From: Gemmatimonadales bacterium
Lineage (GTDB): Bacteria > Gemmatimonadota > Gemmatimonadetes > Gemmatimonadales > GWC2-71-9
DNA: 64,000 nt
Assembly (NCBI GenBank): GCA_045803515.1
Contig: JBJMOX010000341.1
Coordinates: 4,180-68,179 of the forward strand
Reading direction: 5' to 3'
Shown: positions 7,450 to 35,659 of the stretch, piece by piece
Position numbering within the stretch: the stretch's first letter is position 1
Layout: the number at the start of each line of letters is the position of its first letter
Made by a program: the position numbers and the translations under genes
The notes under the pieces: model-generated
The model's input: the letters and a program-made list of their open reading frames with translations, nothing else
Told to the model about the DNA's origin: nothing
Databases searched by the model: none

Positions 7450-10101
7450 CTAGGTCTGAAGCGCAGCGAGCGTCGGCCGGCTGGTTCCGGTGCCCCGAAC
7501 GACGCCTTCTACCCGCCGGGACAGATCCAGAGACCGCGCCGCGACGCCCTGGACGTCCTCGGCGGTGACATTTCGAAACATTGCCGCCGGATCCACCAGC
7601 TCACCCAGGCCGCGGCCCGCTACCCAGGCGTCGAGGATCTCACCCGCGAGCGCAGCTCCGCTCTGCCGGCTCACCTCGGCCTGGCCTGCCAGATAGTTGA
7701 CGGCCTGCCTGAGCTCCGGCTCGCTGGCCGGCTCCCGGGTGAAGCGCTCGAGCTCCTCCAGCATTGCCTCCCGAGCCTCGTCCTCCCGCTCCGGTGACGT
7801 TGCGATGTAGGTCACCAGCGCTCCCGCCCGAGCCTTCTGCCAGGCGGAGGCGACGACGGTGTAGGCCAGCGATCGGCGATCGCGGAGCGACTCGAACAGC
7901 CTCCCTCCGAGGCCGCTCGCGACCGCCGCCCAGACCTGGGCCGCCGCGCGATCGGGATCCCCCCGGGCTGGCCCTGGGAACCCCATCGCTAGCGCGGCTT
8001 GTGCCTTGTCCCGCCGCACGACCCGGCTCGGCGGCCCTCCGGTCTCCCCGGCGATCCAGTCGATCCCCGGGAGCCGGCCGAGCGGCGGGCGGGTTGGGTG
8101 GTGCTGGAACACGCCGGAAAGCCTCGCGGCCGCATCGTCCGGCTCGACATCCCCCACCGCGATTACGACCGGCCGTACGGTCAGGAGGGAGCGGTTGTGC
8201 CAGGCCCTCACATCCGCCGGCGCGATGGCCGCCAGGGTATGCGGTAGCCCCATCACCGGGAGCCCGTAGCCCCGATCCCCGAATGCGATCTCGAAGGCCA
8301 GCTGGAAGGGGTACCGGAACATGTCGTCGGTTACCTGCTCCGCTTCCGCGATCATCAGCCCCCGCTCCCGCTCCACGTCGGTCCCCGACAGGATCGGCGC
8401 GGTGTACACCAGATCGATCAACCAAGCCGCTTCCGCCAGGTTCTCCGCCAGCACGGTGGTGCCCAGCCCGAGCCAGTCGGAGGCCGCAGCCGGGCTCAGG
8501 CTTCCGCCCAGTCGCTCGAAGGCGAAAGCCAGCCCTCCAGCGTCGAAGCCGTCTGCTCCCCGAACCGAGCTCCGCATCACCAGAGAGCCGAGGCCGGCCT
8601 GGGCGGGTGGATCGAGGTGCACTCGAGGGACGTAGAGGCCCAGGGTCACCAGCGGCACGCCCGGCTTCCGGCGCACCAGCAGATCCACGCCAGGCAAAGC
8701 CACGTGCAGGACGTCGGCCTCCTTGCGGCCAGGCACGGTCACGGGTGGACGGCGCTCTGGGAGAGTCGCGGGAACGGCAGGTAGAGGCTCGAGTCTCGAT
8801 ACCGCAAAGCGCCGGGCGAGGCCATCCGCCGTCACAGCGTTCCCTTCCTCTTCGGGAAGGTAGACCACGCCGGCCACCGCCTCCGGGTCGAGATACCGCG
8901 CGGCGACGAGCCGCACGTCCTCCGGCCGCACCGCACCGAGCGCCTGGTACTCGCGGTCCAGGAAGGCGAACCCGTCCAGCGCCTCTGCGGCGGCCAGGGA
9001 CGCGGCGCGGCCTTCCATCGCTTCCAGCCGGCGAGCCCAGCGGGCCCGGAGCAGCGTTCGGGCGCGCTCGAGGTCCTCGTCCGAGGGACCCGCCATCGCG
9101 AGGCGTGCGACCGACTCGGCGACGCCGTCGAGAGCGGCAGGCACCCGTTCGGGGGCGAGCTCGGCGGACGCGCTGAACACGCCCACCTCGGTCGGCGCAT
9201 AGTTGTGGGCGGCGGCCCAGGTCACGATGCCCGGCTCACGGAGCCGCCGGTACAGCCAGCTCCCCCGGCCGGAGCCCAGGATCCCAGCGGCGATGTCGAG
9301 GGCGGCGGAATCGGCATGGAGCGGCGGGACCGTGCGCCAGCCGAGCGTCAGCTCCGCCTGGGTGACGTCGCCCCGGAGCGTGCGCGCCCGCACCTCCCGG
9401 CGAGGCGGCTCCTCGGGAGAACGATCGACCGCGCCCGGACGAGCCGCCCAGTCCCCATACTTCGCCTCTGCCAGGCCGAGCGCCCGTTCCGGGTCCACCG
9501 CGCCCACGATAGCCACGATGATCCGCTCGGGCACGTAGCGCGACTGGTAATACTCCCACAGGTCGTCGCGGGTGAGCCGCGCCAGCTCCGGCTCGTGCCC
9601 GATCCGCCACCGGCGGATGCGGTGGCGGTCGAACATCACCTCGTGCAGGGTCTCGTAGGCGACCGAGGACGGCGTGTCCAGCTTGCGCTTGGCTTCCTGG
9701 ATGATGACCTGCAGCTCACGGGCGAGCTCACCCGGGTCGATGGTCGAGTGGCGCAGCGCGTCGGCCTGAATGTCGAGCGCGGCTTCGAGGCCGAGGGCGG
9801 GCAGGACGGCGAAGTAGCTGGTGTGATCGTAACTGGTGCTGGCGTTGAGATACCCACCAGCGCTCTTGGTCTCCCGGGCAATGGCACCGACGCCCCGGCG
9901 CTCGGTGCCTTTGAAGAACATGTGCTCCAGCACGTGGGAGATGCCGATCCAGCGGTCGGGCTCATCGAAGAATCCCGCCTTGACGTGGGTCACCACGGCC
10001 ACGACGGGCGCGGAGCGGTCCTCTTGGACCAGGAGCGTCAGCCCGTTGGGCAAGACGTGGCGGCGGACGCCGGCGGTCCACAGCGGCGATGCGGAGGACA
10101 C
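7450..10101 (-). CDS. M16-family zinc peptidase, fused double module (pitrilysin-like)
   Basis: 883 aa. Inverted zinc motif HVLEHMFFKG (HxxEH) in the N-terminal half. The second half looks like an M16 unit without the motif. Confidence 0.85.
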   Translation of the reverse strand: MSSASPLWTAGVRRHVLPNGLTLLVQEDRSAPVVAVVTHVKAGFFDEPDRWIGISHVLEHMFFKGTERRGVGAIARETKSAGGYLNASTSYDHTSYFAVLPALGLEAALDIQADALRHSTIDPGELARELQVIIQEAKRKLDTPSSVAYETLHEVMFDRHRIRRWRIGHEPELARLTRDDLWEYYQSRYVPERIIVAIVGAVDPERALGLAEAKYGDWAARPGAVDRSPEEPPRREVRARTLRGDVTQAELTLGWRTVPPLHADSAALDIAAGILGSGRGSWLYRRLREPGIVTWAAAHNYAPTEVGVFSASAELAPERVPAALDGVAESVARLAMAGPSDEDLERARTLLRARWARRLEAMEGRAASLAAAEALDGFAFLDREYQALGAVRPEDVRLVAARYLDPEAVAGVVYLPEEEGNAVTADGLARRFAVSRLEPLPAVPATLPERRPPVTVPGRKEADVLHVALPGVDLLVRRKPGVPLVTLGLYVPRVHLDPPAQAGLGSLVMRSSVRGADGFDAGGLAFAFERLGGSLSPAAASDWLGLGTTVLAENLAEAAWLIDLVYTAPILSGTDVERERGLMIAEAEQVTDDMFRYPFQLAFEIAFGDRGYGLPVMGLPHTLAAIAPADVRAWHNRSLLTVRPVVIAVGDVEPDDAAARLSGVFQHHPTRPPLGRLPGIDWIAGETGGPPSRVVRRDKAQAALAMGFPGPARGDPDRAAAQVWAAVASGLGGRLFESLRDRRSLAYTVVASAWQKARAGALVTYIATSPEREDEAREAMLEELERFTREPASEPELRQAVNYLAGQAEVSRQSGAALAGEILDAWVAGRGLGELVDPAAMFRNVTAEDVQGVAARSLDLSRRVEGVVRGTGTSRPTLAALQT

Positions 10102-11377: not shown

Positions 11378-12064
11378 TTGGCTACTCCCGATCCCGCCGA
11401 CACTACCACTCCCCGCTGGCAACGGCGCCCCGAGGCCCGCCCGGAGGAGATCATCGATGCCGCGCAGCAGGTGTTCGGGGAAACCGGCTTCGCCCGGACC
11501 AAGCTGGAGGACGTGGCCCGCATCGCCGGCGTGAGCAAGGGCACAGTCTATCTCTACTTCGACTCCAAAGAATCACTGTTCCGTGCGATGGTGCGGGCCA
11601 AGGTGGTCGCGGCCCTCACCGAGCTGGAGGAGATCGTCCGCGGCCACGAGGGTCCCGCCGGCGAGTTGCTGGCCAGCCTGATCCGGCGGATGTACCGCCG
11701 CATGCGCAACGATCAGATGGCCCGCATCAGCCGGCTGGTCCATGCGGAGCTGAGCAACTTCCCCGAGCTGGCCAAGTTCTACTTCGAGGAAGTGATCCTC
11801 CGCGCTCGCCGTCTGATCGAGGACGTGATCCGGCGGGGCGTCGAGGCCGGCGAGTTTCGCGCCGTCCCGAACGGGTTCGCCGCCCGGGGGCTCTGCTCTC
11901 TCCTGGTGCAGACCGCCCAGGTCCAGTGCTTCTTCCACGGCTACGATCCCGGCGCCCTGACCGAAGAGCAGGCGCTCGAAGGACTGATCGATCTGTACCT
12001 GAACGGAGTGCTCGCGCGCCCAACCGTCCGGATTCAGCTCCCGGCGCGACCGGCGGCCATCTGA
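11378..12064 (+). CDS. TetR/AcrR-family transcriptional regulator
   Basis: N-terminal HTH (FARTKLEDVARIAGVSKGTVYLYF) typical of TetR. TTG start. Confidence 0.9.
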   Translation: MATPDPADTTTPRWQRRPEARPEEIIDAAQQVFGETGFARTKLEDVARIAGVSKGTVYLYFDSKESLFRAMVRAKVVAALTELEEIVRGHEGPAGELLASLIRRMYRRMRNDQMARISRLVHAELSNFPELAKFYFEEVILRARRLIEDVIRRGVEAGEFRAVPNGFAARGLCSLLVQTAQVQCFFHGYDPGALTEEQALEGLIDLYLNGVLARPTVRIQLPARPAAI

Positions 12065-12076
12065 GGAATCGCCCGC

Positions 12077-13393
12077 ATGCCTCGCCTTCTGCTTGCCCTG
12101 ATGCTGGTCGCGCCGCTCCCCATCGGCCCCCTCGCCGCCCAGCAGCAGCCCGTGGCCCCCAGCGGCCCGCTCACCCTGTTGCAGGCCATCTCGCTCGGTC
12201 GCCAGCAGGGAGTCAACGCCGCCGTCGCGCGGCTCGAGCTGCGAGCGGCCAACGCCAAGGTGGCCGAGCGGCGGGCGGACCTGCTCCCCAACATCAGCGG
12301 CAACGCGTCGTACCTGCGGCAGACGGTCAACCTGGATCAGTTCGGGATCCCGATCGCCAGCGGGGTCACCGACCCGTTCAACATCTACACCCTGCAGCTC
12401 CGCGGCGAGCAGCTGCTCTTCGACGCGAGCACGATCACCCGGCTCCGGGCGGCACGGGATACGGCTCTCGCCTCCGGGCTCGACGCCCAGGCGGTAGGCG
12501 AGATCGCCGGCGCCACTGCGGGACTGGCGTATCTCCGCGCGCTCAGCGCCGACGAGACGGTGCGGGCCCGCCAGGCGGACAGCGTGGTGGCGGCGCAGCT
12601 GCTCGATCAGGCTCGTCAACTGGTCTCCGCCGGAGTCAGTCCCGCTATCGACGCCACCCGCAGCGAGGTGAGCTTCGCCTCGGTGCGGACCCAGCTCGAG
12701 CTCGCGCGCAACTCGGCCGACCGCGCCCGGCTCGATCTGCTGCGGACGCTCGACCTCTCCTCGGGCACCCGGCTCCAGCTGGCCGACTCGCTGGGCCTCG
12801 GCGCCCTCGACCTGCCGCTCGCGCCCGATACGGCAGCCGCGTTCGCCCGGGAACACCGTGCGGAGCTCGCCGCCGAGCGCAACCGGACCAAGGCCGCCCG
12901 GAGCTCGCTGAGCGCCATCCGCGAGGAGAACCTGCCCAGTCTGTCGCTCAACGGCTCGTATCAGCAGACTGGCCAGAAGACCAGCACCCTGGCCGGGAGT
13001 TACAACGTGCAATTGCTGCTCAGCGTGCCGATCCTCGACGGCTTCCGCCGCCAGAGTCGCGCGAAGGAGCAATCCGCCCGGCTCGAGGTGCAGCAGCTCC
13101 GGGAGCACGATCTGGTGAACCAGATCGAGACCGAGGCCCGGCAGTCGGTGCTCGATCTCGCCTCGGCCCAGCAGCAGGTCGCCATCGCCGGCGACCGGCT
13201 CCGCCTGGCCGAGCAGGAACTGTCCCAAGCCCAGGAGCGGTTTCAGAGTGGTGTCGCCAGCAGTGTGGAAACGACCAACGCCCAGAGCTCGGTGATCGCC
13301 GCGCGTGACGCGCTGATCCAGGCTCGGGTCAACTATGGCACCGCCCGGGTGAGCGCCTACCGCGCGCTGGGCGTCATCGATCAACTGAAGTAA
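12077..13393 (+). CDS. TolC-family outer-membrane efflux protein
   Basis: 438 aa. Signal peptide and a two-fold repeated coiled/beta pattern characteristic of OEP/TolC. First structural gene of the efflux operon. Confidence 0.85.
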   Translation: MPRLLLALMLVAPLPIGPLAAQQQPVAPSGPLTLLQAISLGRQQGVNAAVARLELRAANAKVAERRADLLPNISGNASYLRQTVNLDQFGIPIASGVTDPFNIYTLQLRGEQLLFDASTITRLRAARDTALASGLDAQAVGEIAGATAGLAYLRALSADETVRARQADSVVAAQLLDQARQLVSAGVSPAIDATRSEVSFASVRTQLELARNSADRARLDLLRTLDLSSGTRLQLADSLGLGALDLPLAPDTAAAFAREHRAELAAERNRTKAARSSLSAIREENLPSLSLNGSYQQTGQKTSTLAGSYNVQLLLSVPILDGFRRQSRAKEQSARLEVQQLREHDLVNQIETEARQSVLDLASAQQQVAIAGDRLRLAEQELSQAQERFQSGVASSVETTNAQSSVIAARDALIQARVNYGTARVSAYRALGVIDQLK

Positions 13394-13420
13394 ACCGCGG
13401 ATCAGGAACCGAGACCGAAC

Positions 13421-14518
13421 ATGTCGACCGATATCGCAATAGATGTCCCCGCGACCGCCGCGCCCGAGGCGACCAGGACCGGCTCCCGCCGCCTGACGAT
13501 CCTGGTGGCGGTCCTGCTGGTCCTTACGCTGGCCGGCTGGGGGGTGCGCCGCTACATCTTCTCCCGCCACCACGTGAACACGGACAACGCCCAGGTGGAC
13601 GGCCACATCACGGTGGTGAGCCCGCGGATCCAGGGCTTCATCGGCCGGGTGCTGGTGGAGGAGAATCAGCACGTGAAAGCCGGCGATACCCTGGTCGTGC
13701 TCGACGATCGCGATGTCCGGGTGCGGCTGCAGCAGGCGGAGGCGGAGCTGCGCGATGCGCAGACCTCCGTCAGCCTGCGCGGCCGGGCCGGCCAGGCCGA
13801 GTCACAGCTCCAGGCCACCCAGGCACAGGCGGCGTCGGCCCAGGCGGCGGTCTCGGCAGCCGAGGCGAACTTCCGGAAGGCCGCGTCCGACCTGGAGCGG
13901 TATCGCGGACTCGCGGCCAAGCAGATCGTCTCCGCCCAACAGCTCGACGCCGCCCAGGCGGCATACGATGCCGCGAACGCCAACCTCCTGGCCGCCCGGA
14001 AGCAGGCCGCCGCCGCCGGGAGCCAGGTGACCGCCTCGGGCGCCGCGGTCCGCGGAGCCGACGCCCGGGTGGCGGCCGCCCAGGCCGCGGTGGACAACGC
14101 CCGGCTGCAGCTCAGCTACACGGCGCTGCTCGCGCCGGTGGACGGAATGGTGGCCAAGCGCACCGCCGAGCCCGGCGCCCTGGTGCAGGTGGGGCAGAAC
14201 CTGATGTCAGTCGTCCCGGACAGGGACATCTGGGTCACCGCCAATCTCAAGGAGACCCAGCTCGACAAGGTCAGGGTCGGTGACCCGGTCGACTTCACCG
14301 TGGACGCGTACGACGACCTCACCTTCCATGGCAAGGTCGAGAGCCTGAGCCCGGCGACCGGGGCACGTTTCGCGCTGCTCCCGCCCGACAACGCCACCGG
14401 CAACTTCACCAAGGTGGTGCAGCGCGTGCCGGTGCGGATCGCGGTCGAGCAGTCGGGCGACCCGGCCCACCCGTTGCGGCCGGGCATGTCGGTCGACGTC
14501 ACAATCGCCACCGACTGA
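13421..14518 (+). CDS. HlyD/EmrA-family membrane fusion protein
   Basis: N-terminal TM anchor, long Ala/Gln coiled coil and C-terminal beta-barrel region (YTALLAPVDGMV). Sits between the TolC and MFS genes. Confidence 0.85.
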   Translation: MSTDIAIDVPATAAPEATRTGSRRLTILVAVLLVLTLAGWGVRRYIFSRHHVNTDNAQVDGHITVVSPRIQGFIGRVLVEENQHVKAGDTLVVLDDRDVRVRLQQAEAELRDAQTSVSLRGRAGQAESQLQATQAQAASAQAAVSAAEANFRKAASDLERYRGLAAKQIVSAQQLDAAQAAYDAANANLLAARKQAAAAGSQVTASGAAVRGADARVAAAQAAVDNARLQLSYTALLAPVDGMVAKRTAEPGALVQVGQNLMSVVPDRDIWVTANLKETQLDKVRVGDPVDFTVDAYDDLTFHGKVESLSPATGARFALLPPDNATGNFTKVVQRVPVRIAVEQSGDPAHPLRPGMSVDVTIATD

Positions 14519-14525
14519 GCCGGCG

Positions 14526-16112
14526 ATGGGCACCCTGGCACTTCCTTCGCCGGCCAGGCCACTGGGCCGTGACGTGGTCTTTCGCGCCCGCTACGTCATC
14601 GCGTTCGCGGTGACCCTGGCGAGCGTGCTCGAGCTGGTGGATACCAGCATCGTCAACGTGGCGATTCCCCACATGATGGGGAACCTCGGCGCGACCCTCG
14701 ACGAGGTAGCCTGGGTCAGCACCGGATACATCGTGGCCAACGTCATCGTGCTCCCGCTGACCAGCTGGCTTTCGGTCCGGTTCGGCCGGCGGAACTACTA
14801 CACCGGCTCGATCCTCCTCTTCACCACGGCCTCGTTCTTCTGCGGCAGCGCCGGGTCGCTCGAAAGCCTGGTGTTCTGGCGGGTGGTGCAGGGCATCGGC
14901 GGCGGCGCCCTCATCAGCACCGCGCAGGCCATTCTGTTCGACGTCTTTCCCCTGCACGAGCGCGCCAAGGCCATGGCGATCTTCGGTATGGGCGTCATGG
15001 TCGGCCCGACCCTCGGCCCCACGCTCGGCGGCTGGATCACCGACAACTACTCCTGGCCGTGGATCTTCTACATCAATGTGCCGCTGGGGCTGCTGGCCGG
15101 GTTCATGACCTGGCGCAACGTCCCCGAGCCGACGCACGCGGTGCAGCAGAGCGACGGCGTCGACTGGCTGGGACTGCTCTTCCTCATCATGGGCATCGGG
15201 GCGCTCCAGATTCTGCTCGAGCGCGGGGAGTCGAAGGATTGGTTCGAGTCCCGCGAGATCCTGGTCGAGAGCGTCATCGCGGGCCTCGGTCTGGTGCTCT
15301 TCGTCTGGCACGAGCTCCGCACCCCCAATCCGATCGTCGACCTTCGCATCCTCAAGAACCGCCAGCTGACCGCCGGGGTGATCTTCGGCTTGATGCTCGG
15401 GTTCGCGCTGTACGCCAGTGTCTTCGCGCTGCCGGTCTTCCTGCAGAATCTCCGGGGCTACACGGCCTGGGATACCGGGAAGGTGATTCTCCCTGGCGCG
15501 ATCGCGGCGGCCGTGACCATGGCCACGATGGGACGGCTCGCGCCCAGGTTCGACGCGCGGGGGTTGATCACCCTGGGCGTTTCCCTCTTCATGTGGTCGA
15601 TGTGGCTGCACGCCCATCTCACCACCCTGAGCGGCACCTCCGACCTGTTCTGGCCGATGATCCTCCGCGGCGTCGGCCTGGGCTTCATCTTTGTCCCCTT
15701 GACCGGTGTCGCCGTGGCCGACCTCAAGCCCAACCAGCTGGCGCAGGGCACCGGTCTCTTCAACCTCTCCCGCCAGCTGGGCGGCAGTTTCGGGATCGCC
15801 GTCACGGCTACCCTGCTCACCCGGTTCACCGAGCAGAGCCGGGAGGCGCTGCTGCCGCATCTCTCCTCCGGTGACACGGTGACCCGCGGCTGGCTGCAGC
15901 AGGTGACCGACCGGATGCTGGCCCAGGGCGGCACCCTGGCGCAGGCCCAGATGAAGGCGCACGCGGTGCTGGACAACGTGCTTCACGCCCAGGCGTCCAT
16001 GATCGCGTTCGAAAAGGTCTTCCTGACGATGGGAATCACCTTCGTCTGCGCCCTCCCGCTGCTGTTCCTCTTCCGAACCGGGCGTTCCCGCGGCGGCAGC
16101 GCGGCCCACTGA
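14526..16112 (+). CDS. MFS drug:H+ antiporter, DHA2 (EmrB/QacA) family
   Basis: 528 aa with about 14 TM segments. LDTSIVNVAIPHM and GWITD motifs are typical of EmrB. Confidence 0.9.
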   Translation: MGTLALPSPARPLGRDVVFRARYVIAFAVTLASVLELVDTSIVNVAIPHMMGNLGATLDEVAWVSTGYIVANVIVLPLTSWLSVRFGRRNYYTGSILLFTTASFFCGSAGSLESLVFWRVVQGIGGGALISTAQAILFDVFPLHERAKAMAIFGMGVMVGPTLGPTLGGWITDNYSWPWIFYINVPLGLLAGFMTWRNVPEPTHAVQQSDGVDWLGLLFLIMGIGALQILLERGESKDWFESREILVESVIAGLGLVLFVWHELRTPNPIVDLRILKNRQLTAGVIFGLMLGFALYASVFALPVFLQNLRGYTAWDTGKVILPGAIAAAVTMATMGRLAPRFDARGLITLGVSLFMWSMWLHAHLTTLSGTSDLFWPMILRGVGLGFIFVPLTGVAVADLKPNQLAQGTGLFNLSRQLGGSFGIAVTATLLTRFTEQSREALLPHLSSGDTVTRGWLQQVTDRMLAQGGTLAQAQMKAHAVLDNVLHAQASMIAFEKVFLTMGITFVCALPLLFLFRTGRSRGGSAAH

Positions 16113-16176: not shown

Positions 16177-17634
16177 GTGACCTTCCAGCGTAAGCTCCTG
16201 TTCGGCTTCTCCCTCATGGTATTGCCCGCGCTCCTGGTCGGAGCGGAGGCCATCCGCAACAACGCGCTGGAGCGCCGGGCGCTCCAGGCGCTGGGCGAGA
16301 GCATGTCGCGCACCCGCACCTACGCGGAGCTGGAGACCGCGATGTTCAACCAGAGCGAGGTCATCTGGCGCTACCTGAGCGGCCTCGACCCCGGGGCGCG
16401 CCGGGAGTTTGAGCTGACCGGCGAGGTGGTCGACTACTGGCAGCAGCGCTGGCGGAGGGAGCTCCGGCCCGAGGAGATGCAACTGGCCGACGGCGTCGCC
16501 GGAATCCAGCGTCAGATCGTCCGGGTGGCGGACAGCATCTTCGTGCTGGATGACGCCGGGCAGCGGGAGGCCGCGTACCGCCTGGCGCAGCGCGATCTCA
16601 AGACCCGGCTGCTCCCCGCCCTGACCGCCATGAACCGAGAGATCTACCGCCGGGCCCGCGAGTCCAGTGTGCGGGGGGCCTACTCCCGGTTGCAGGAAAT
16701 CCTCGGGGCCGAAGCCCGGAGCCTGCTCGCGATCATCGTGCTCTCCCTGGCGCTCGGGCTGCTCGCGTCCTGGCTGATCTCGCGCAGCCTTGCCCGGCCG
16801 GTCAGCGAGCTCACCCGGGCGATGGCCATCGTCGGCTCGGGACAGCTCGAGCATCCGATCAGGGCCACCTCGCGAGACGAGATCGGGGACCTTGCCCGCG
16901 CGCTGGCCAGTATGACCGAGAACCTGCGGCAGTCCCGGGCGCAGCTGGTGCAGTCCGAGAAGCTGGCCTCCATCGGCGAGATGGCCGCGGCCGTGGCGCA
17001 CGGCCTCCGCAATCCGCTCGGCAGCCTGAGGGCCGCGGCCCAGCTGGTGCGCCGCCATCCCGAGTCTCCCTCGTCCGGCGAGCATCTGGACGCCATCATC
17101 GAGGAAGTCGATCGGCTCGACCGGCGGATCAGAGACCTCCTGAGCTTCAGCCGTCCGGCGCCCTATCGGCCGATGTCCGAGAGCCTGCCACGCCTGGTCG
17201 AGGGACTCCTGCCGGCCTTCACCCAGCCGCTCAGGGAGCACCGGGTCGAGCTGAAGGTGGCGATGGCTTCCAACCTGCCCGAAGTACAGGTGGATCCGAT
17301 GCAACTGGAGCAGGCGGTCGTGGAGGTGGTCTCCAACGCGCTGGACGCGATGCCCGCGGGCGGGCACCTCAGAATCACCGGCTCGACCGAGGATGGAGCG
17401 GTCGGTCCCGCCGAGGTGACCCTGGAGGTGAGCGACACCGGCCCCGGAATTCCCGAACAGGTCCTCGCCTCGGTCTGCGAGCCGTTCTTCACCACGCGCC
17501 AGGAGGGCACCGGCCTGGGGCTGGCGATCGCCAAGCGGTACGTCGAGCAGAACGGCGGACGCCTGGAGATCGAAAGCCGGATCGGTGAGGGGACCACGGT
17601 GCGGATCCGGCTGCCGGCGAGGCATTCGTCGTGA
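16177..17634 (+). CDS. Sensor histidine kinase with HAMP domain
   Basis: TM-periplasmic-TM-HAMP architecture. H-box AHGLRNPL, N-box VVSNALDAM, G-boxes DTGPGIP and GTGLGLAIA. GTG start. Confidence 0.9.
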   Translation: MTFQRKLLFGFSLMVLPALLVGAEAIRNNALERRALQALGESMSRTRTYAELETAMFNQSEVIWRYLSGLDPGARREFELTGEVVDYWQQRWRRELRPEEMQLADGVAGIQRQIVRVADSIFVLDDAGQREAAYRLAQRDLKTRLLPALTAMNREIYRRARESSVRGAYSRLQEILGAEARSLLAIIVLSLALGLLASWLISRSLARPVSELTRAMAIVGSGQLEHPIRATSRDEIGDLARALASMTENLRQSRAQLVQSEKLASIGEMAAAVAHGLRNPLGSLRAAAQLVRRHPESPSSGEHLDAIIEEVDRLDRRIRDLLSFSRPAPYRPMSESLPRLVEGLLPAFTQPLREHRVELKVAMASNLPEVQVDPMQLEQAVVEVVSNALDAMPAGGHLRITGSTEDGAVGPAEVTLEVSDTGPGIPEQVLASVCEPFFTTRQEGTGLGLAIAKRYVEQNGGRLEIESRIGEGTTVRIRLPARHSS

Positions 17635-19067
17635 GCGGCTCGACCGTGTTGATCGTGGACGACGAGCGGACGCTGGCCCGGGCGGTGAAGGGCTTTTTCA
17701 CGGAATCGGGGTACGAGGCCGAGGTCGCCGGGGACGCGGAGCAGGCACTCGCCCTGCTGGAGACCCTGCGCCCCGACGTGGTCTTTACCGACGTCCGGCT
17801 GCCGGGCATGAGCGGCATCGACCTGCTGCGCCGGATCCGGGAGTTCGACGCCGCGATCCCGGTGATCATCATGACCGCCCACGGCACCATCGAGGGCGCG
17901 GTCGAGGCCGTGAAGCTCGGCGCCTTCGACTACCTCAAGAAGCCGGTGGATCTGGAGGAGCTCAAGCTTCTGGCCGACCGGGCCCGCGAGACCTCCCAAA
18001 TCAAACAGGAGCTGTCGTATTACCGGCGCCGTGCCGCCGCGCCCGATCTCCCCCTGGCCGGCCTGGTGGGCGATTCCGCCGGGCTCCGTGCAGTGGTGGA
18101 ACAGGCTCGGCAGATCGCCGCCCTGCAGGAGACTCCGCCGGTGCTCATCATGGGCGAGACCGGGACCGGCAAAGGGCTGATCGCCCACACCATTCACGGA
18201 GCGAGCCCGCGGGCCAATCGCCCGTTCATCGAGGTGAACTGCACCGCGCTTCCGGCCAACCTCATGGAGGCCGAGCTCTTCGGCCATGAGCGCGGGGCCT
18301 TCACCGACGCCAAGGAATCCAGGATGGGGTTGTTCGAGGCGGCGGAGGGAGGATTCCTCTTCCTGGACGAGGTGGGTGACCTGGAGCTGGCGCTCCAGGG
18401 AAAGCTCCTCAAGGCGGTCGAGGAGCGAACCGTCCGCCGAGTCGGGGGGGTGCGGGATCGCCGGATCGACGTCCGCATTCTGGCCGCCACCAATCGCGAC
18501 CTCGAGCGCGAGGCCCAGCGCGAGCAGTTCCGGCGTGATCTCTACTTCCGGCTCGCGGTGATCATCCTCCACCTCCCGCCACTCCGGGAGCGGGGCAATG
18601 ACATCCTGATCCTGGCGGAGCACTTTCTCAAGCGCTTCAATGCCAAGTACGGCAAGCAGGTCCGTACCATCGACGCACGGGCTCGGGAACTGCTGCTGAC
18701 GTACCCCTGGCCGGGGAACGTTCGCGAGCTAAGCCACGTGATGGAGCGCGCCGTACTCTGGAGCCGAGGCTCCGCCATGCTCGATGTCGAGCACCTCTCG
18801 TTGGGAAACCCGCTCCAGTCCACCCCGGCGGCCGAACCCGTAGTGCCGGAGCCGGGACCACTGGCGGAGCGGGTCCCCAACACAGGCTCGCCGGTGCTGC
18901 CGCCGCCCGGGGTGGATCTCGAGGGGTGGGAGAAGTCGCTGATCGAGCAGGCACTGCGAGAAGCGGATGGCAATCAGACGCGGGCGGCGCAACGCCTGGG
19001 CATCAGTCGCGACACGCTCCGCTACCGTCTGAAGAAGCACGGAATCCAAGGTTATGGGATTTCGTGA
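17631..19067 (+). CDS. Sigma-54-dependent response regulator (NtrC/Fis family bEBP)
   Basis: Receiver domain, AAA+ Walker A GETGTGKG, sigma-54 contact loop present as GAFTDA, and a C-terminal Fis HTH (TRAAQRLGISRDTLRYRLKKHGI). 4-nt overlap with the kinase gene. Confidence 0.9.
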   Translation: MSGSTVLIVDDERTLARAVKGFFTESGYEAEVAGDAEQALALLETLRPDVVFTDVRLPGMSGIDLLRRIREFDAAIPVIIMTAHGTIEGAVEAVKLGAFDYLKKPVDLEELKLLADRARETSQIKQELSYYRRRAAAPDLPLAGLVGDSAGLRAVVEQARQIAALQETPPVLIMGETGTGKGLIAHTIHGASPRANRPFIEVNCTALPANLMEAELFGHERGAFTDAKESRMGLFEAAEGGFLFLDEVGDLELALQGKLLKAVEERTVRRVGGVRDRRIDVRILAATNRDLEREAQREQFRRDLYFRLAVIILHLPPLRERGNDILILAEHFLKRFNAKYGKQVRTIDARARELLLTYPWPGNVRELSHVMERAVLWSRGSAMLDVEHLSLGNPLQSTPAAEPVVPEPGPLAERVPNTGSPVLPPPGVDLEGWEKSLIEQALREADGNQTRAAQRLGISRDTLRYRLKKHGIQGYGIS

Positions 19068-19069
19068 GG

Positions 19070-19085
19070 TGGGTGAGATCACCCA
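19070..19085. promoter_or_regulatory. Palindrome TGGGTG-N4-CACCCA, copy 1 (candidate enhancer/UAS or terminator hairpin)
   Basis: TGGGTGAGATCACCCA starts 3 nt after the bEBP stop. Its centre is about 128 bp upstream of the -24 GG. Confidence 0.5.
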
Positions 19086-19203
19086 ACTGGGGGTAATGCC
19101 CCCGCCCGGGCCACCCTTCACCGGGTTCGCCAAGGGCTCGATATCATCTGGTAATTCTTCAGAGCACAACAGCTTGGGCAGCTACGTCGGATCGTGCCGA
19201 TTG

Positions 19204-19219
19204 TGGCACGGCGACTGCA
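19204..19219 (+). promoter_or_regulatory. Sigma-54 (-24/-12) promoter of the pqq operon
   Basis: TGGCACGGCGACTGCA versus consensus TGGCACG-N4-TTGCW: a single mismatch with exact GG/GC spacing. 110 nt upstream of the pqqA ATG, in an intergenic region next to a bEBP gene. Confidence 0.7.
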
Positions 19220-19256
19220 TAGTGGAGGGCGTCGTCGGGTCAGTGAAGGGCCCGGC

Positions 19257-19272
19257 TGGGTGGAATCACCCA
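19257..19272. promoter_or_regulatory. Palindrome TGGGTG-N4-CACCCA, copy 2 (in the pqqA leader)
   Basis: TGGGTGGAATCACCCA, 14/16 identical to copy 1. Located between the -12 element and the pqqA Shine-Dalgarno. Confidence 0.5.
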
Positions 19273-19327
19273 CAGTCGAAGTGCGGGGCCGACCCGGCCC
19301 AACCCATCACACCACGGAGGATGGAAC

Positions 19328-19402
19328 ATGAAGTGGACCAAGCCCGAAGCTGAAGTTGTGGCCGTCACGATGGAAGTGACCGCCTACGTCGCGACGCTCT
19401 AA
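19328..19402 (+). CDS. pqqA: PQQ precursor peptide PqqA
   Basis: 24 codons, MKWTKPEAEVVAVTMEVTAYVATL, with the conserved Glu-x3-Tyr (EVTAY). GGAGG lies 7 nt upstream. Immediately precedes pqqB. Too short for the ORF track. Confidence 0.9.
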   Translation: MKWTKPEAEVVAVTMEVTAYVATL

Positions 19403-19418
19403 GCCGCAGCACTGACTC

Positions 19419-19444
19419 GAGGGGCTCGCGAAAGCGGGCCCTTC
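19419..19444 (+). terminator. pqqA-pqqB intergenic stem-loop (attenuator or mRNA stabiliser)
   Basis: GGGCTCGC-GAAA-GCGGGCCC: 8 bp including one G-U, GAAA tetraloop, extendable to 11 bp. Followed by GTGTTTTC. 12 nt before the pqqB GTG. Confidence 0.55.
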
Positions 19445-19455
19445 AGTGTTTTCAG

Positions 19456-20361
19456 GTGCAGGTCATCCTCCTCGGTACCGCCGCTGGCGGCGGCTTTCCC
19501 CAATGGAACTGCTGGTGCCCCTCCTGTCGTGTGGCGCGGGCTGACCCCCGGCGTGCCCTTCCGCGATCACAATCCTCGGCCGCGGTGAGCTCGGACGGGG
19601 AGCGCTGGTTTCTGTTGAATGCCTCGCCCGACGTCCACGCCCAGCTCAGCCGTGTGCCGACGCAGCCCGCGGGCGTGCGCCACGTACCCGTCGAGGGAAT
19701 CGTCCTGACCGATGCCGAGCTGGACCATACCCTGGGCATCGTCCTGCTCCGGGAGGCGAGACAGCTGCAGGTCTGCGCCACCCACGCGGTCCGTCAGGTG
19801 CTGGAGGCCGATTCACGCATCCTTCCGGTCACCCGGGCCTTCGCCGAGGTGCGCGTGACCGATCTGCCCTCCCACGGCGCCATGGCCCTGTGTTATCGTG
19901 ACGGACGCGACAGCGGGATTGCCGTTTCCAGCTTCGAGGTGCCCGCCGGCCCCCCGCGGTTCGCCCGCGAGGAGCTGCCGGGCCATACCGTGGGTCTGGT
20001 GCTGACCGATCAGGCCAGCGGCGCCTCCTGTGCGTTCGTGCCGGGCTGTGGCGGTCTGGACGACCATCTGCTGGAGCTCCTCGCCGGGACCGACCTCGTC
20101 CTGTTCGATGGCACCTTCTGGACGGACGACGAGCTGATCCAGCTTGGCATAGGCGAGCGGACCGCGCGGCAGATGGACCACCTGCCGGTCTCCGGCCCCG
20201 ACGGCAGCCTCGAGCGGCTGGCTACGCTGCCCTCGAGACACCGGGTGTACACCCACATCAACAACACCAATCCCATGCTTCTGGAAGACTCTCCGGAGCG
20301 GGCCCTGGTGGAGCGCCGCGGCTGGCGGGTTGGGGCCGACGGCATGGCATTCACCCTCTGA
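19456..20361 (+). CDS. pqqB: PQQ biosynthesis protein PqqB (metallo-beta-lactamase fold)
   Basis: The N-terminus LLGTAAGGGFPQWNCWCPSC is the hallmark PqqB motif. 301 aa, GTG start. Confidence 0.92.
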   Translation: MQVILLGTAAGGGFPQWNCWCPSCRVARADPRRALPRSQSSAAVSSDGERWFLLNASPDVHAQLSRVPTQPAGVRHVPVEGIVLTDAELDHTLGIVLLREARQLQVCATHAVRQVLEADSRILPVTRAFAEVRVTDLPSHGAMALCYRDGRDSGIAVSSFEVPAGPPRFAREELPGHTVGLVLTDQASGASCAFVPGCGGLDDHLLELLAGTDLVLFDGTFWTDDELIQLGIGERTARQMDHLPVSGPDGSLERLATLPSRHRVYTHINNTNPMLLEDSPERALVERRGWRVGADGMAFTL

Positions 20362-20372
20362 CCGGCACCCCG

Positions 20373-21125
20373 ATGACCGCGACCCTTCTGGCCTCGAAGC
20401 TGGCGACCCCACCGGCCCCGCCGTTCCCCCGATTGGAGCGGGCGCTCGGTCCGGGTGAGCTGGAGGACGCCCTCCGGTCGTTCAACGGCTCGTACTACGT
20501 CGAGCACCCGTTTCACCAGCTGATGTATGAGGGGCGACTCACCCAGCGCCAGTTCCAGGGCTGGGTGGCGAACCGCCTGGCGTACCAGCGGGTGGTGCCC
20601 CGGAAGGACGCGGCCATTCTGTCGAACTGTCCCGATCCCCAGGTCCGCCGGGAGTGGATCCAGCGGATCATCGACCACGATGGCACCGAGCCGGGAACCG
20701 GCGGGATCGAGCTCTGGGTGCGACTGGGCGTCGCCCTCGGCGTTCCTCGGCAGGAGATGGAGGACGAGCGGCACGTGCTGCCGGCCGTGCGGCTGATCTG
20801 CGAGTCGTACGTGACCTTCTGCAGGAACAGGCCATGGCAGGAAGCGGTCGCCTCCTCGTTGACCGAGCTGTTCGCGCCCAAGATCCATCAGCAGCGGATC
20901 CAGTCGTTTCCGCTGCACTATCCCTGGATCCCGCCGGAGGCGCTCGACTACTTCAAGAGCCGCCTGGTCCAGGCACCTCGGGACGTGAGTCACGGGCTCA
21001 GCATCGTGAAGACCTGGGCCACCACTCCGGAGCGGCAGCAGAAGGTGTTCGAGGCGCTGGCCTTCAAGCTCGAGATGCTGTGGGCCATGATAGACACCAT
21101 CCACAACGCGTACCGCGAGGAATGA
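20373..21125 (+). CDS. pqqC: Pyrroloquinoline-quinone synthase PqqC
   Basis: 250 aa. Length, position in the operon and a heme-oxygenase-like helical sequence (YYVEHPFHQLM) match PqqC. Confidence 0.9.
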   Translation: MTATLLASKLATPPAPPFPRLERALGPGELEDALRSFNGSYYVEHPFHQLMYEGRLTQRQFQGWVANRLAYQRVVPRKDAAILSNCPDPQVRREWIQRIIDHDGTEPGTGGIELWVRLGVALGVPRQEMEDERHVLPAVRLICESYVTFCRNRPWQEAVASSLTELFAPKIHQQRIQSFPLHYPWIPPEALDYFKSRLVQAPRDVSHGLSIVKTWATTPERQQKVFEALAFKLEMLWAMIDTIHNAYREE

Positions 21126-21394
21126 GCGGCGTGACGATCTCGCTCGACAACGTGCCCCGGCTCTGGCGGCTGGCCCGGCTCGATTACGACCCGGCGCGGC
21201 AACGGCCGGTGCTGTTGTATCCCGAGGGGGCGGTGCTGCTCAACGACACCGGCCGCGCCATCCTGGAGCTGGTGGATGGCAGCCGAAGCGTCGCCCAGAT
21301 CGCGGCGGAGCTGAGCGCGCGGTACGAGACCGACGTGACCGCCGACGTGACCGCATACCTCTCGCATCTGGCGGAGAGAGAGCTGATCCAATGA
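21122..21394 (+). CDS. pqqD: PqqA-binding chaperone PqqD
   Basis: 90 aa. LLYPEGAVLLNDTGRAILELVDGSRSVAQIAAELS matches the PqqD/RRE fold signature. ATGA overlaps with both pqqC and pqqE. Confidence 0.9.
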   Translation: MSGVTISLDNVPRLWRLARLDYDPARQRPVLLYPEGAVLLNDTGRAILELVDGSRSVAQIAAELSARYETDVTADVTAYLSHLAERELIQ

Positions 21395-22478
21395 CCACTG
21401 AGCGCCCCACGACTTTGCTTGCGGAGATCACCCACCGCTGTCCCTTGCATTGCCCCTACTGCTCCAACCCGCTGGATCTTCTCCGGGCGGACAGCGAGAT
21501 CGGCACCGAGGACTGGAAGCGAGTCTTCAGCGAGGCCCGCGAGCTCGGGGTGCTGCAGCTCGGCCTGTCGGGCGGCGAGCCGCTGGTGCGCAAGGACCTC
21601 GAGGAGCTGGCGATCCACGCCAGGAGTCTGGGGCTCTACACCACCCTGGTGACCTCCGGGCTCGGTCTCACCCGAAAGCGGGCGGAAGCGCTGCGTGCGG
21701 CCGGGCTGGAGCACGTGCAGATCTCGATCCAGGATTCGGATCCAGTGTCGGCCGAGCGGATCGCGGGAGTGAGCTCGGTCAAGCAGAAGCTGGCGGCAAT
21801 CGCTCTGGTGAAGGAGCTAGGCTTCGCGTTCTCGGTCAACGTGGTGCTGCATCGCGCCAACCTCGACCGGATCGGGGAGATCATCGATCTCGCGGCGAGC
21901 CATGGCGCGGACCGCCTCGAGCTCGCCAACACCCAGTACTACGGGTGGGGGCTCAAGAACCGGAGCTCGCTGATGCCGTCCAGGGAGCAGGTGCTGGCCG
22001 CGAAGGAGATCGCCCAGGATCGGATGCAGCGCTACAAGGGACGGATGCAGATCACCTTCGTGCTGCCCGATTACTTCGAGGAGCTGCCCAAGGCCTGCTA
22101 CGGCGGGTGGGGTCGGTACTACATCGTGGTCTCTCCCGACGGGAAGGCGCTGCCGTGCCACGGGGCTTACGCGATTCCCTCGCTCGAGCTCCCCAGCGTG
22201 CGGGAGCACTCGGTGCGGTGGATCTGGCACGAATCGTCCGCCTTCCAGGCGTTCCGGGGCGATTCGTGGATGAAGGAGCCGTGTCGCAGTTGTCCTCGAA
22301 AGGCCATCGACTTCGGGGGCTGCCGCTGCCAGGCACTCGCGCTCACGGGCGACGCGGCGAACGCCGATCCGGTCTGCACGCTGAGCCCCTTCCGCCATCT
22401 GATCGACGAGGCGCTTGAGGGGCACGCCGGCGCCGACGAGTACGCTTACCGGGAAATCGCGGCCGAGCCCCTGCGCGC

Positions 22479-22482
<4 letters not shown>
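21391..22482 (+). CDS. pqqE: Radical SAM/SPASM enzyme PqqE
   Basis: The CPLHCPYC cluster motif (CxxxCxxC) lies near the N-terminus. C-terminal auxiliary Cys cluster (CRSCPRKAIDFGGCRCQA). 363 aa. Confidence 0.92.
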
Positions 22483-23401
<919 letters not shown>

Positions 23402-23405
<4 letters not shown>

Positions 23406-24211
23406 GCGTGGCGAGCACCATCTACGGGATCGTCGCCCGTGATCTCGCGCGAACCACCCGCCAGACCAGTCGCCTCCTGGGTGGCCTGGCGCGTCCCTTC
23501 ATGTGGCTCCTGCTGGTCGGCACGGGGTACAACGCGATCGCCCGGTTGGAGAACGGCATCTCCTACCGGGCGTTCGTCTTTCCCGGGGTCGTCATCATGG
23601 CGTCCCTCTTCGGTGCCATGTTGACGGCGATCGCGACGGTCTACGACCGCGAGTTCGGGATGCTCCGTCTCATGCTGGCGAGTCCCGCGGGTGTGCCCGC
23701 GGTCCTCATGGGCCGGGCTCTCGCCGCGGCGCTGATCGGATTCACCCAGGGAGCCGTCGTGCTCCTCTTCGCGCCTTTGGTCGTGCCGGGGTCGGGATCG
23801 GCACTGCTCGCCGGGGCTGCGGCGCTGGCCCTCTCCTCCGCCAGCAGTGCGATGCTGGGATTGCTTGTGGCCGCCCGGTTGACCTCGGTGGAGAACTTCG
23901 CCGGAGTGATCAACGTGGTGCTGTTTCCACTGCTGTTCGTAAGCGGCGCGCTCTATCCGACCAGCGGAATGCCCCGCGTCCTTCGCGCGCTCGCCCGGGT
24001 GAACCCGGTGACCTTCCAGGTCGATCTCATGCGACATGCCTTCCACCAGCCGGTGGAGTTCAGCCCGACGACGGGGGTGCTGGTGCTGGCGGCGACGATC
24101 ATCGTGGCGTTCGGACTCACCGCGTGGCTGTTCGATCCGGAGCAGCGGTTTGTCGGGAGAGTGACTAGGGGCAGGCCGTCGGCTGGGGCGCAGCCAGGCG
24201 GGAAAGCGTGA
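23402..24211 (+). CDS. ABC-2 type transporter permease
   Basis: 269 aa with about 6 TM segments. The ATG overlaps the ATPase stop (ATGA). Typical ABC-2 layout. Confidence 0.8.
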
Positions 24212-35166: not shown

Positions 35167-35182
35167 TGGCATTAGTGTTGCT
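35167..35182 (+). promoter_or_regulatory. Sigma-54 (-24/-12) promoter upstream of the GNAT/desaturase genes
   Basis: TGGCATTAGTGTTGCT versus TGGCAC-N5-TTGCW: one mismatch (C to T at -21, a common variant) with exact spacing. 43 nt before the GNAT ATG, which has a GGAGG Shine-Dalgarno. Confidence 0.6.
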
Positions 35183-35224: not shown

Positions 35225-35659
35225 ATGAGCGAACTCACGATTCGGGAAATGGAACAGGACGAGGACTTCTCCTCCTGGTTCTCGGATCTGCTCGACCAGG
35301 AGGAGGATCCCAACGGCGGACCCGCCGGCTTGGACGAGCACTATCTCGTCCTGAGCAACGAGATTGGTGACTGGATCGGCGGCCTGCGCTACTGGCTGAG
35401 GGGCGGCGTGGCGCACCTGGTCGATGTGGTGGTCCTGCCGCAGGAGCGGCACCAGGGCCACGCCCATCGGCTGCTGGCGGCGTTTGAGGAGCGGGCCGGG
35501 AGTACCGGGGGACATATCGCGGAGTTCTGGACCGATGACCTCCGTTCGGAAGCCCTGCTGGCGGCCCTGGGGTGGCGGCGTATCTTTCAGCGGGACGACT
35601 ACATCGGGCACCGAAGCTGGTACCTGATGGAGAAGCAGATCGGACCAGACACCCCCTGA
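35225..35659 (+). CDS. GNAT-family N-acetyltransferase
   Basis: 144 aa. VVVLPQERHQGHAHRLL matches the acetyl-CoA-binding motif A region (Q/R-x-x-G-x-G/A). Confidence 0.7.
   Translation: MSELTIREMEQDEDFSSWFSDLLDQEEDPNGGPAGLDEHYLVLSNEIGDWIGGLRYWLRGGVAHLVDVVVLPQERHQGHAHRLLAAFEERAGSTGGHIAEFWTDDLRSEALLAALGWRRIFQRDDYIGHRSWYLMEKQIGPDTP

Follow-up and report, generated by a model that had tools for sequence, protein, structure and literature searches.

The stretch of 64,000 nucleotides analysed here as a whole (the window), from contig JBJMOX010000341.1 of a Gemmatimonadales soil bacterium, carries pqqA, the gene for the precursor peptide of pyrroloquinoline quinone (PQQ). Upstream of pqqA reside the genes of a sensor histidine kinase and of a response regulator of the bacterial enhancer-binding protein (bEBP) type, and the region between the regulator gene and pqqA hosts a -24/-12 element and three palindromes. 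It is likely that pqqA is transcribed from a sigma-54 promoter switched on by the adjacent two-component system. The relevant features are listed below, in window coordinates.

16177 to 17634, forward strand: sensor histidine kinase, made of a first transmembrane segment, a periplasmic domain, a second transmembrane segment, and HAMP, HisKA and HATPase domains (domains assigned by Pfam).
17631 to 19067, forward strand: NtrC-family enhancer-binding response regulator (the activator), stop codon at 19065-19067.
19070 to 19085, no strand assigned: upstream activating sequence 1 (UAS-1), perfect palindrome TGGGTGAGATCACCCA, centre 127.5 bp upstream of the -24 GG.
19088 to 19103, no strand assigned: UAS-2, degenerate palindrome TGGGGGTAATGCCCCC, centre 18 bp downstream of UAS-1.
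19167 to 19176, no strand assigned: putative integration host factor (IHF)-like core CAACAGCTTG (CAA-N4-TTR), a weak call, 38 bp upstream of the -24 GG.
19204 to 19219, forward strand: predicted sigma-54 promoter TGGCACGGCGACTGCA, -24 GG at 19205-19206, -12 GC at 19217-19218.
19257 to 19272, no strand assigned: downstream palindrome (Pal2) TGGGTGGAATCACCCA, centre 59.5 bp past the -24 GG, at about +34 relative to the predicted start.
19328 to 19402, forward strand: pqqA, encoding the 24-residue PQQ precursor peptide MKWTKPEAEVVAVTMEVTAYVATL with the E-X3-Y motif.

The pqqA product scores 23.0 bits against the PqqA Pfam model PF08042 (cut-off 21.1) and contains the residues EVTAY; pqqBCDE follow downstream. 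A first-pass annotation of this DNA had described a -24/-12 element with one mismatch and exact spacing, a GAFTDA loop in the activator, and a downstream palindrome 14/16 identical to UAS-1, and all three are found by direct reading of the sequence. Open reading frames (ORFs) and Pfam domains agree with its placing of an NtrC-type activator next to a HAMP kinase upstream of pqqA. The palindrome that it located 3 nt after the activator stop is in place at 19070-19085, and actually starts 2 nt past the stop codon.

The conservation of the locus was analysed by scanning one genome per species for orthologues of the activator. These were identified at 49 loci (68-86% identity), designated below by L numbers like the other loci compared, and all reside in Gemmatimonadales; the next matches, at most 46% identical, come from Acidobacteriota. 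The activator gene is followed by pqqA in 41/49 of these GTDB loci; in the other eight no pqqA is present on the contig, and most of these contigs end too early. The kinase gene adjoins the activator gene in every Gemmatimonadales locus in which the contig reaches upstream of the latter, and the order kinase-activator-pqqA is kept in all sufficiently long contigs of the 49 species. Three variants of the gene order have been identified. In the first (L023, L024, L027-L029, L041) pqqBCD are located between the activator gene and the palindromes and promoter, which precede pqqA and pqqE. In the second (L030, L031, L042, L044) pqqA alone follows the activator gene, with unrelated genes beyond; three of these four loci (L030, L042, L044) have a short leader of 51-52 nt. 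In the third, found in one species (L039), pqqB is relocated upstream of the kinase. The kinase-activator-pqqA unit survives all these rearrangements, and the regulated target would therefore be pqqA itself, which encodes the stoichiometric substrate of the pathway.

In the predicted promoter, GG and GC are exactly 10 nt apart, and there is one mismatch to TGGCAC-N5-TTGCW; a transcription start is predicted from the element at about 19229-19231. Sequences fitting GGCAY-N5-NTGC are present within 200 nt upstream of 42/42 pqqA genes, that of the window included, and just 28 other matches occur on both strands of 545 kb. No sigma-70-like promoter was detected by a scan of the interval 18900-19600. 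Metagenomes were also scanned blindly, with a pattern (palindrome, 90-120 nt, GGCAC-N6-TGC) containing no information on pqqA. The scan retrieved 80 loci: pqqA follows within 250 nt in 41 of them, and another 3 are orthologous loci cut short. The matches not associated with pqqA are mostly internal to long ORFs, and these were regarded as fortuitous. A comparative search for palindrome and -24/-12 motif upstream of pqqA in related genomes had been proposed in the first-pass annotation, and both motifs are found there.

Palindromes of the UAS-1 type are rare. The window contains two exact copies and one with a single mismatch, against 0.11 expected, and none of 100 shuffled sequences reaches three. 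The third copy (36054, one mismatch) lies inside an acyl-acyl carrier protein (ACP) desaturase gene, and was taken as chance. Among 545 kb of sequence, 50 of the 51 exact copies of GGGTG-N4-CACCC reside within 300 nt upstream of pqqA. Similarly, 70/72 copies of the relaxed palindrome TGGG[TG]-N6-[AC]CCCA in 590 kb are found at most 300 nt upstream of pqqA, and the remaining two come from one contig that ends before pqqA. The consensus of UAS-1 in orthologous loci is TGGGTGA-nn-TCACCCA, and a second site is found in alignments 17-22 bp after it, mostly at 18-21 bp. The centres of the two upstream sites thus precede the -24 GG by about 128 and 110 bp. The first-pass annotation had assumed one upstream enhancer site: the enhancer distance stands, and the single copy does not, as the degenerate second site at 19088-19103 makes the upstream enhancer a tandem pair of predicted sites. 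UAS-1 and UAS-2 are paired dyad sites, their motif is specific to the regions upstream of pqqA and, as described below, of pqqU, and they are located at the distance from the promoter, about 80-150 bp, at which enhancers usually reside.

In L005 and L020, where inserted DNA has parted the activator gene from pqqA, the UAS stays with the pqqA promoter; the palindromes are therefore part of the promoter, rather than of the 3' end of the activator gene. A role of UAS-1 as terminator of the activator gene was ruled out, since the palindrome lacks a T-run, and moves with the pqqA promoter upon insertions. The notion that the palindromes are enhancer sites for the adjacent kinase/activator pair is supported by the synteny in 49 species, by the conserved GG-N10-GC, and by the occurrence of the palindromes almost only upstream of pqqA. 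The same comparative evidence strongly supports the sigma-54-dependent pqqA promoter with enhancer palindromes put forward in the first-pass annotation.

Some observations on related sequences may be mentioned here. An exact GGGTG-N4-CACCC is also found in the window at 45047. In L003 (at about 7470-7580) and in L004 (upstream of pqqA), the DNA inserted between activator gene and UAS carries a palindromic repeat, GTCATCCTGAGCGGAGCGAAGGA...TCCTTCGCTCGCTCAGGATGAC, resembling repetitive extragenic palindromes or miniature inverted-repeat transposable elements. The insertion in L005 (7819-8844) contains an ORF of 341 residues with an HC...H...M motif resembling a copper site. In the metagenome contigs L105 and L137, TGGGTG-N4-CACCCA and a sigma-54 promoter directly follow kinase/activator pairs 43-45% identical to that of the window. 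The next gene, judged by eye from the N-terminal translation, encodes an SCO1/SenC-like protein in L105, and a small secreted repeat protein in L137. In L110, palindrome and promoter precede a gene the N-terminus of which resembles, by eye, pyruvate:ferredoxin oxidoreductase. A second sigma-54-like element of the window, TGGCATTAGTGTTGCT (35167-35182), is intergenic and has one mismatch. The gene that begins 43 nt downstream of it encodes a GNAT acetyltransferase (35225-35659), and is followed by the acyl-ACP desaturase gene (35768-36745); no TGGGTG-type palindrome was found upstream of the element.

The activator has the domains expected for its class intact, namely Response_reg, Sigma54_activat, AAA_lid_14 and HTH_8 (Pfam). 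The phospho-acceptor D54 and the Walker A and B sequences GETGTGKG and FLFLDEVG can be read directly, and the protein thus combines a receiver aspartate, an AAA+ domain with both Walker motifs, and a C-terminal Fis-type helix-turn-helix (HTH), as NtrC-type bEBPs do. The loop contacting sigma-54 reads GAFTDA, not the canonical GAFTGA. The variant is invariant in 49/49 orthologues of the activator and in 31 Acidobacteriota homologues. GAFTDA is among the loop variants expected to keep activator function (PMC4641369), and is carried by DVU2106 of Desulfovibrio vulgaris, an activator with an assigned regulon (PMC4641369), as well as by VfmH of Dickeya, for which the effect is stated as unknown (PMC10714721). 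Because of its invariance in the 49 orthologues and its presence in the published list of variants expected to be functional (PMC4641369), GAFTDA is probably a natural variant, not a defect.

The activator misses all the equivalog cut-offs of the NCBIfam models compared (AtoC 447/714 bits, NtrC 400/559, ZraR 344/760). The nearest models are AtoC and NtrC, and the top solved relative is Aquifex NtrC1. Judged by these scores, the protein is a member of the NtrC family, not an orthologue of any named regulator. The 31 Acidobacteriota/Binatia homologues (L050-L080, 43-46% identity) all carry GAFTDA, in contrast to the GAFTGA of other activators encoded nearby in these loci; the variant therefore marks a subfamily extending across phyla. 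The Acidobacteriota loci L050-L080 were ruled out as instances of the same system, because pqqA, palindrome and promoter are missing downstream.

The kinase stop and the activator start overlap by 4 nt. The periplasmic domain of the kinase (about residues 25-178) is modelled by AlphaFold2 as an all-helical four-helix bundle, with a mean pLDDT (predicted local distance difference test) of 85. The folds most similar to it are those of NarQ and of Tar-type four-helix-bundle sensors, a generic result without a clue to the ligand. Sensors of this type mostly bind small ligands. Searches of the sensor domain against Pfam and PDB sequences were empty, and a large protein search retrieved orthologues only. 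Directly upstream of the kinase gene lies an efflux operon (11378-16112) encoding a TetR regulator, an outer-membrane factor, a membrane-fusion protein and a major facilitator superfamily pump. The operon is probably outside the module, because it is present only in closer relatives.

The predicted pqqA RNA contains, besides Pal2, other candidate structures and signals.

19234 to 19256, forward strand: leader hairpin 1, in which GTCGGGTC (19234-19241) pairs with GGCCCGGC (19249-19256).
19286 to 19300, forward strand: possible leader hairpin 3, GGGCCG-ACC-CGGCCC, present in alignments for part of the clade.
19316 to 19320, forward strand: Shine-Dalgarno sequence GGAGG, after hairpin 3.
19419 to 19453, forward strand: terminator-like hairpin GAGGGGCTCGC-GAAA-GCGGGCCCTTC (also written GAGGGGCTCGC-GAAA-GCGGGCCCCTC) with a T-rich tail, identified by a terminator scan.

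Hairpin 1 lies directly next to Pal2, and its 5' arm begins some 4-6 nt past the predicted transcription start. RNAalifold and pair counts reveal covariation: 98.5% of the cells of the alignment are paired, and 4/8 pairs have changed on both sides. G.U pairs are frequent, and workable only in RNA of the plus strand; the region downstream of the promoter is therefore transcribed rightwards. Covariation was relied on because the folding of the single leader sequence is uninformative, the minimum-energy structure being no better than those of shuffled sequences (z = -0.84) and different from the comparative structure. The alignment of hairpin 3 is too gappy for covariation analyses. An Rfam search of the interval 18900-19500 returned only chance-level matches (E >= 0.5).

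Pal2 behaves differently from hairpin 1. It has been identified in 37/82 distinct pqqA promoters, all from one clade, and in 37/37 of them its centre lies at +57.5 to +59.5 from the first G of the -24 GG. The core TGGGTG/CACCCA is 94-100% invariant, lacks G.U pairs, and shows a single compensatory change (L014). The distance between UAS-1 and Pal2 is either 186-190 bp or 176-180 bp, never intermediate, and the two classes differ by one helical turn. Related palindromes are present in several non-homologous leaders of pqqU, the gene of the PQQ importer described below. Position and sequence being so constant, Pal2 is probably a third DNA site of the activator, rather than an RNA hairpin only.

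Alternatively, Pal2 may act purely as RNA, forming with hairpin 1 a double stem-loop that stabilises the pqqA mRNA or tunes its translation, and the likeness to the UAS would be a by-product, for example of a duplication. Pal2 is transcribed if the promoter is real, and its 6-bp GC-rich stem abuts a covarying hairpin; the change in L014, from T-A to C-G, retains pairing and breaks the motif, and leaders devoid of Pal2 still have 5' hairpins. Such a hypothesis hardly accounts for a core that is nearly invariant in 37 promoters next to a hairpin which drifts freely under the same mutational regime, nor for the identity of its sequence to the upstream half-sites. In addition, the copy in the pqqU leader of L206, located at +57.5, has hybrid half-sites (TGGGTG...CCCCCA) and incomplete RNA pairing, and no Rfam family is matched in the interval searched. 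A role exclusively as RNA is the main alternative, and the less likely of the two. DNA and RNA functions of Pal2 could coexist. The downstream copy of the UAS noticed in the first-pass annotation is probably such a DNA site, given its fixed position and invariant core; it belongs to one clade only, and the adjacent covarying hairpin had been overlooked.

In 42/42 loci, a strong hairpin rich in GC and trailed by T-rich sequence comes after pqqA, and the T-run is longer where pqqA is alone. The hairpin looks like a terminator, or an attenuator that would set the ratio of pqqA to pqqBCDE transcripts. Given its presence in all 42 loci, the primary transcript would therefore be about 210 nt long and contain pqqA alone, pqqB-E being reached by read-through. 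The genes found beyond the hairpin are the following.

19456 to 20361, forward strand: pqqB (Pfam Lactamase_B_2).
20373 to 21125, forward strand: pqqC (Pfam TENA/PQQC).
21122 to 21394, forward strand: pqqD (Pfam PqqD), starting at an ATGA overlap.
21391 to 22482, forward strand: pqqE (Pfam Radical_SAM and SPASM).
22479 to 24211, forward strand: ATP-binding cassette (ABC) transporter of the ABC-2 type, ATPase at 22479-23405 and permease at 23402-24211 (Pfam).

The transporter matches, below the cut-offs, the NCBIfam models TIGR03864 (ABC ATPase of PQQ-alcohol-dehydrogenase systems) and TIGR03861 (PedC-type permease). It follows pqqE in many orthologous loci, and is probably the end of the operon. 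No gene for a PQQ-dependent dehydrogenase was found within the window.

A second target of the activator is suggested by one of the intergenic matches of the metagenome scan not associated with pqqA. In L081 (6667-9012), palindrome and promoter precede the gene of a TonB-dependent receptor. The top NCBIfam model of this receptor is PqqU (NF041535; 312 bits over the full length), the next scoring 141, and its nearest solved relatives are E. coli YncD/PqqU (PDB 9c4o/6v81). Eleven relatives were collected, and 12/12 receptors keep F99, K274, R304, R365 and R536 (E. coli PqqU numbering), in agreement with the residues described as a signature of PqqU, Y/F/W99, R304 and R365, and also K274 and R536 (PMC12124388). 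The homologues with a source name are all labelled Gemmatimonadota. The Gemmatimonadota receptors stay below the equivalog cut-off of NF041535 (297-328 bits versus 1200), PqqU still being by far the best model. PqqU has been reported in 183 Gemmatimonadetes genomes (PMC12124388).

The DNA upstream of pqqU was examined in 11 distinct lineages (among L081, L201, L203-L209, L212-L214). GGCAY-N5-NTGC is found 65-93 nt before the pqqU start codon in 9/11 lineages, and in 7 of these 9 a clear TGGG-N8-CCCA palindrome is located 93-117 bp upstream of the promoter; L213 and L214 have only degenerate copies. All 8 copies of TGGG[TG]N6[AC]CCCA present in 81 kb of pqqU loci lie upstream of pqqU. The GGGG/CCCC half-site variant seen in UAS-2 occurs in pqqU promoters as well. 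The lack of synteny had led to the view that pqqU and pqq are regulated independently (PMC12124388); the shared cis-elements suggest, on the contrary, that the two are co-regulated in Gemmatimonadota. The activator probably controls a small regulon for PQQ acquisition, including both synthesis and scavenging. Of the circuit dedicated to PQQ synthesis envisaged in the first-pass annotation, the pqqA target is retained; with the same signals in front of PqqU importer genes, a restriction to synthesis is improbable.

In L205 (5319-7755), L206 (5244-7686) and L212 (3819-5148) the genes of a cytoplasmic PAS-kinase and of a second activator are located directly downstream of pqqU. The second activator is 39% identical to that of the window, and features GAFTGA and a different HTH.

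Several findings weigh against the model, and have to be set beside those reported above. The -24/-12 match of the window, taken alone, is not significant: three one-mismatch matches are found versus 1.3 expected, and 12/100 shuffled windows reach three. The case for the promoter therefore rests on its conservation across genomes. In addition, the -12 element reads CTGC in most orthologues, versus the canonical TTGC. An exact CAA-N4-TTR is present at -37 to -41 in only 11/42 loci. No rpoN gene was found in the 64-kb window, the part of the genome that was searched; RpoN has been recorded in the single finished Gemmatimonadetes genome surveyed in PMC3372290. It may be argued that GG-N10-GC is non-functional, and that pqqA expression stems from transcripts of the kinase/activator operon that run on into it, or from a housekeeping promoter that escaped recognition. 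Gemmatimonadota housekeeping promoters are uncharacterised, so that the negative sigma-70 scan is weak evidence, and the single match, as said, could be fortuitous. Yet, in 42/42 promoters the element keeps a constant spacing to the leader elements amid diverging flanks. It is retained in loci with pqqBCD or a foreign gene between the activator gene and pqqA, and is found again upstream of pqqU. A non-functional element is hence hardly credible.

Other findings concern the link between palindromes and activator. Pal2 is missing from over half of the pqqA promoters, and is therefore not required for activation. Palindromes of the same family adjoin the kinase/activator pairs of 43-45% identity, which have other targets and reside in other taxa. 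The motif is therefore not unique to this activator, and the DNA-binding specificity belongs to a wider subfamily. In the loci compared, a motif-bearing pqqU and the kinase-activator-pqqA module could not be placed in one genome, and the PAS-kinase/activator pair adjoining pqqU in L205, L206 and L212 could be an alternative regulator of pqqU. One may thus hypothesize that the palindromes are bound by another regulator, either a repressor or a paralogous enhancer-binding protein, and that the adjacent pair acts elsewhere, or indirectly; the pairs in L105 and L137 and the second activator beside pqqU are compatible with this. The hypothesis is at odds with the location of the sites immediately 3' of the gene of this activator in about 40 species, with the classic enhancer spacing to a sigma-54 promoter that they retain, and with the persistence of the kinase-activator-pqqA unit in loci where all other neighbours change. 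The recognition helix of the pqqU-adjacent activator, moreover, is different. Control by a different protein appears improbable, and the adjacent activator is the favoured candidate.

From the elements, their conservation, positions and specificity, and from the synteny, we infer binding by the activator, dependence on sigma-54 and a role of the downstream site, and the following scenario may be drawn. The membrane kinase, by means of its periplasmic four-helix-bundle sensor, would phosphorylate the NtrC-type activator at D54. Dimers of the activator bound at the tandem TGGG(T/G)N-N4-N(A/C)CCCA sites, with centres at about -128 and -110 relative to the -24 GG, would assemble into an AAA+ ring. 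Bending of the DNA, possibly at the IHF-like core at about -38, would allow the ring to meet the sigma-54 holoenzyme at TGGCAC-N5-CTGCA, and the promoter would open. The output would be a short RNA of about 210 nt, extending from the covarying 5' hairpin to the terminator-like hairpin after pqqA, and read-through would supply pqqBCDE and the ABC transporter. With a short pqqA RNA and read-through to pqqBCDE, the controlled step would therefore be the supply of the precursor peptide. The palindrome at about +34 would most probably serve as an extra DNA site of the activator, either aiding ring assembly or limiting output. The same activator would also act at pqqU, and a single small regulon would include PQQ synthesis and scavenging.

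The timing of bacterial PQQ production is, to our knowledge, poorly understood outside Pseudomonas and methylotrophs, and we know of no dedicated sensor of PQQ supply. It is tempting, and decidedly speculative, to imagine that the kinase bundle senses the periplasmic status of PQQ, either free PQQ or quinoproteins lacking the cofactor, that one sensor sets both synthesis and TonB-dependent scavenging through pqqU, and that the +34 palindrome provides a ceiling, or feedback. If so, this would be a cofactor-homeostasis circuit, and the first dedicated PQQ sensor. Should the overall scenario hold, a compact module made of a kinase, an activator, three operator sites and a 210-nt target RNA would govern the precursor peptide, not the enzymes. 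Synthesis and scavenging of a cofactor regarded as a public good would be tied to one regulator, against the published view of independent regulation. Under the same scenario, the DNA motif would help to map the regulon and, with the signal identified, to build a biosensor. Gemmatimonadota, which abound in soil, possess PQQ enzymes dependent on lanthanides (PMC10875860), and rank among the main groups bearing PqqU (PMC12124388). The second upstream site, the covarying hairpin, the terminator-like hairpin after pqqA and the pqqU signals are all components that the first-pass annotation had overlooked.

No sigma-54 or two-component circuit acting at pqqA was found described in literature searches, as had been supposed at first pass. 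AgmR is a LuxR-type regulator. In Pseudomonas, a response-regulator cascade including AgmR (ErbR) activates pqqFABCDE and PQQ-dependent functions (PMC12997753). The same review names AgmR as the pqq regulator and does not mention RpoN, its only sigma-54 entry being CbrB (PMC12997753); the effect of CbrAB on pqq is described as mostly indirect (PMC3480352). The AgmR system resembles the present one in the control of a PQQ operon by a response regulator, and differs in that the review ascribes no role at pqq to RpoN. In Azospirillum, pqqA depends on RpoE6, an extracytoplasmic function sigma factor (PMC12826043). The Gemmatimonadota receptors resemble the PqqU (YncD) importer in the five residues, and differ in their scores, about 300-330 bits versus a cut-off of 1200.

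A precedent for the palindrome at +34 is FlrB/FlrC of Vibrio cholerae, in which a sigma-54 activator uses downstream sites; FlrC sites located downstream of the transcription start are reported to act as true enhancers (PMC6504787, citing Correa and Klose 2005). FlrC differs in having sites typically downstream only, and a flagellar regulon. Here two upstream sites form the conserved core, and the downstream site is an accessory of one clade. The circuit also resembles NtrB/NtrC-glnAp2 and AtoS/AtoC of Enterobacteria, in which a kinase is encoded together with a REC-AAA+-HTH_8 activator, and tandem dyad enhancer sites reside about 100-150 bp upstream of a -24/-12 promoter. The binding motifs of NtrC and AtoC differ from TGGGTG-N4-CACCCA. 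By its components, the circuit is mechanistically of the classic two-component/enhancer-binding protein/sigma-54 type, and is not an orthologue of any named one. Besides the recognition motif, it differs from the NtrC and AtoC systems in sensor domain, contact loop (GAFTDA) and target genes (pqqA, pqqU).

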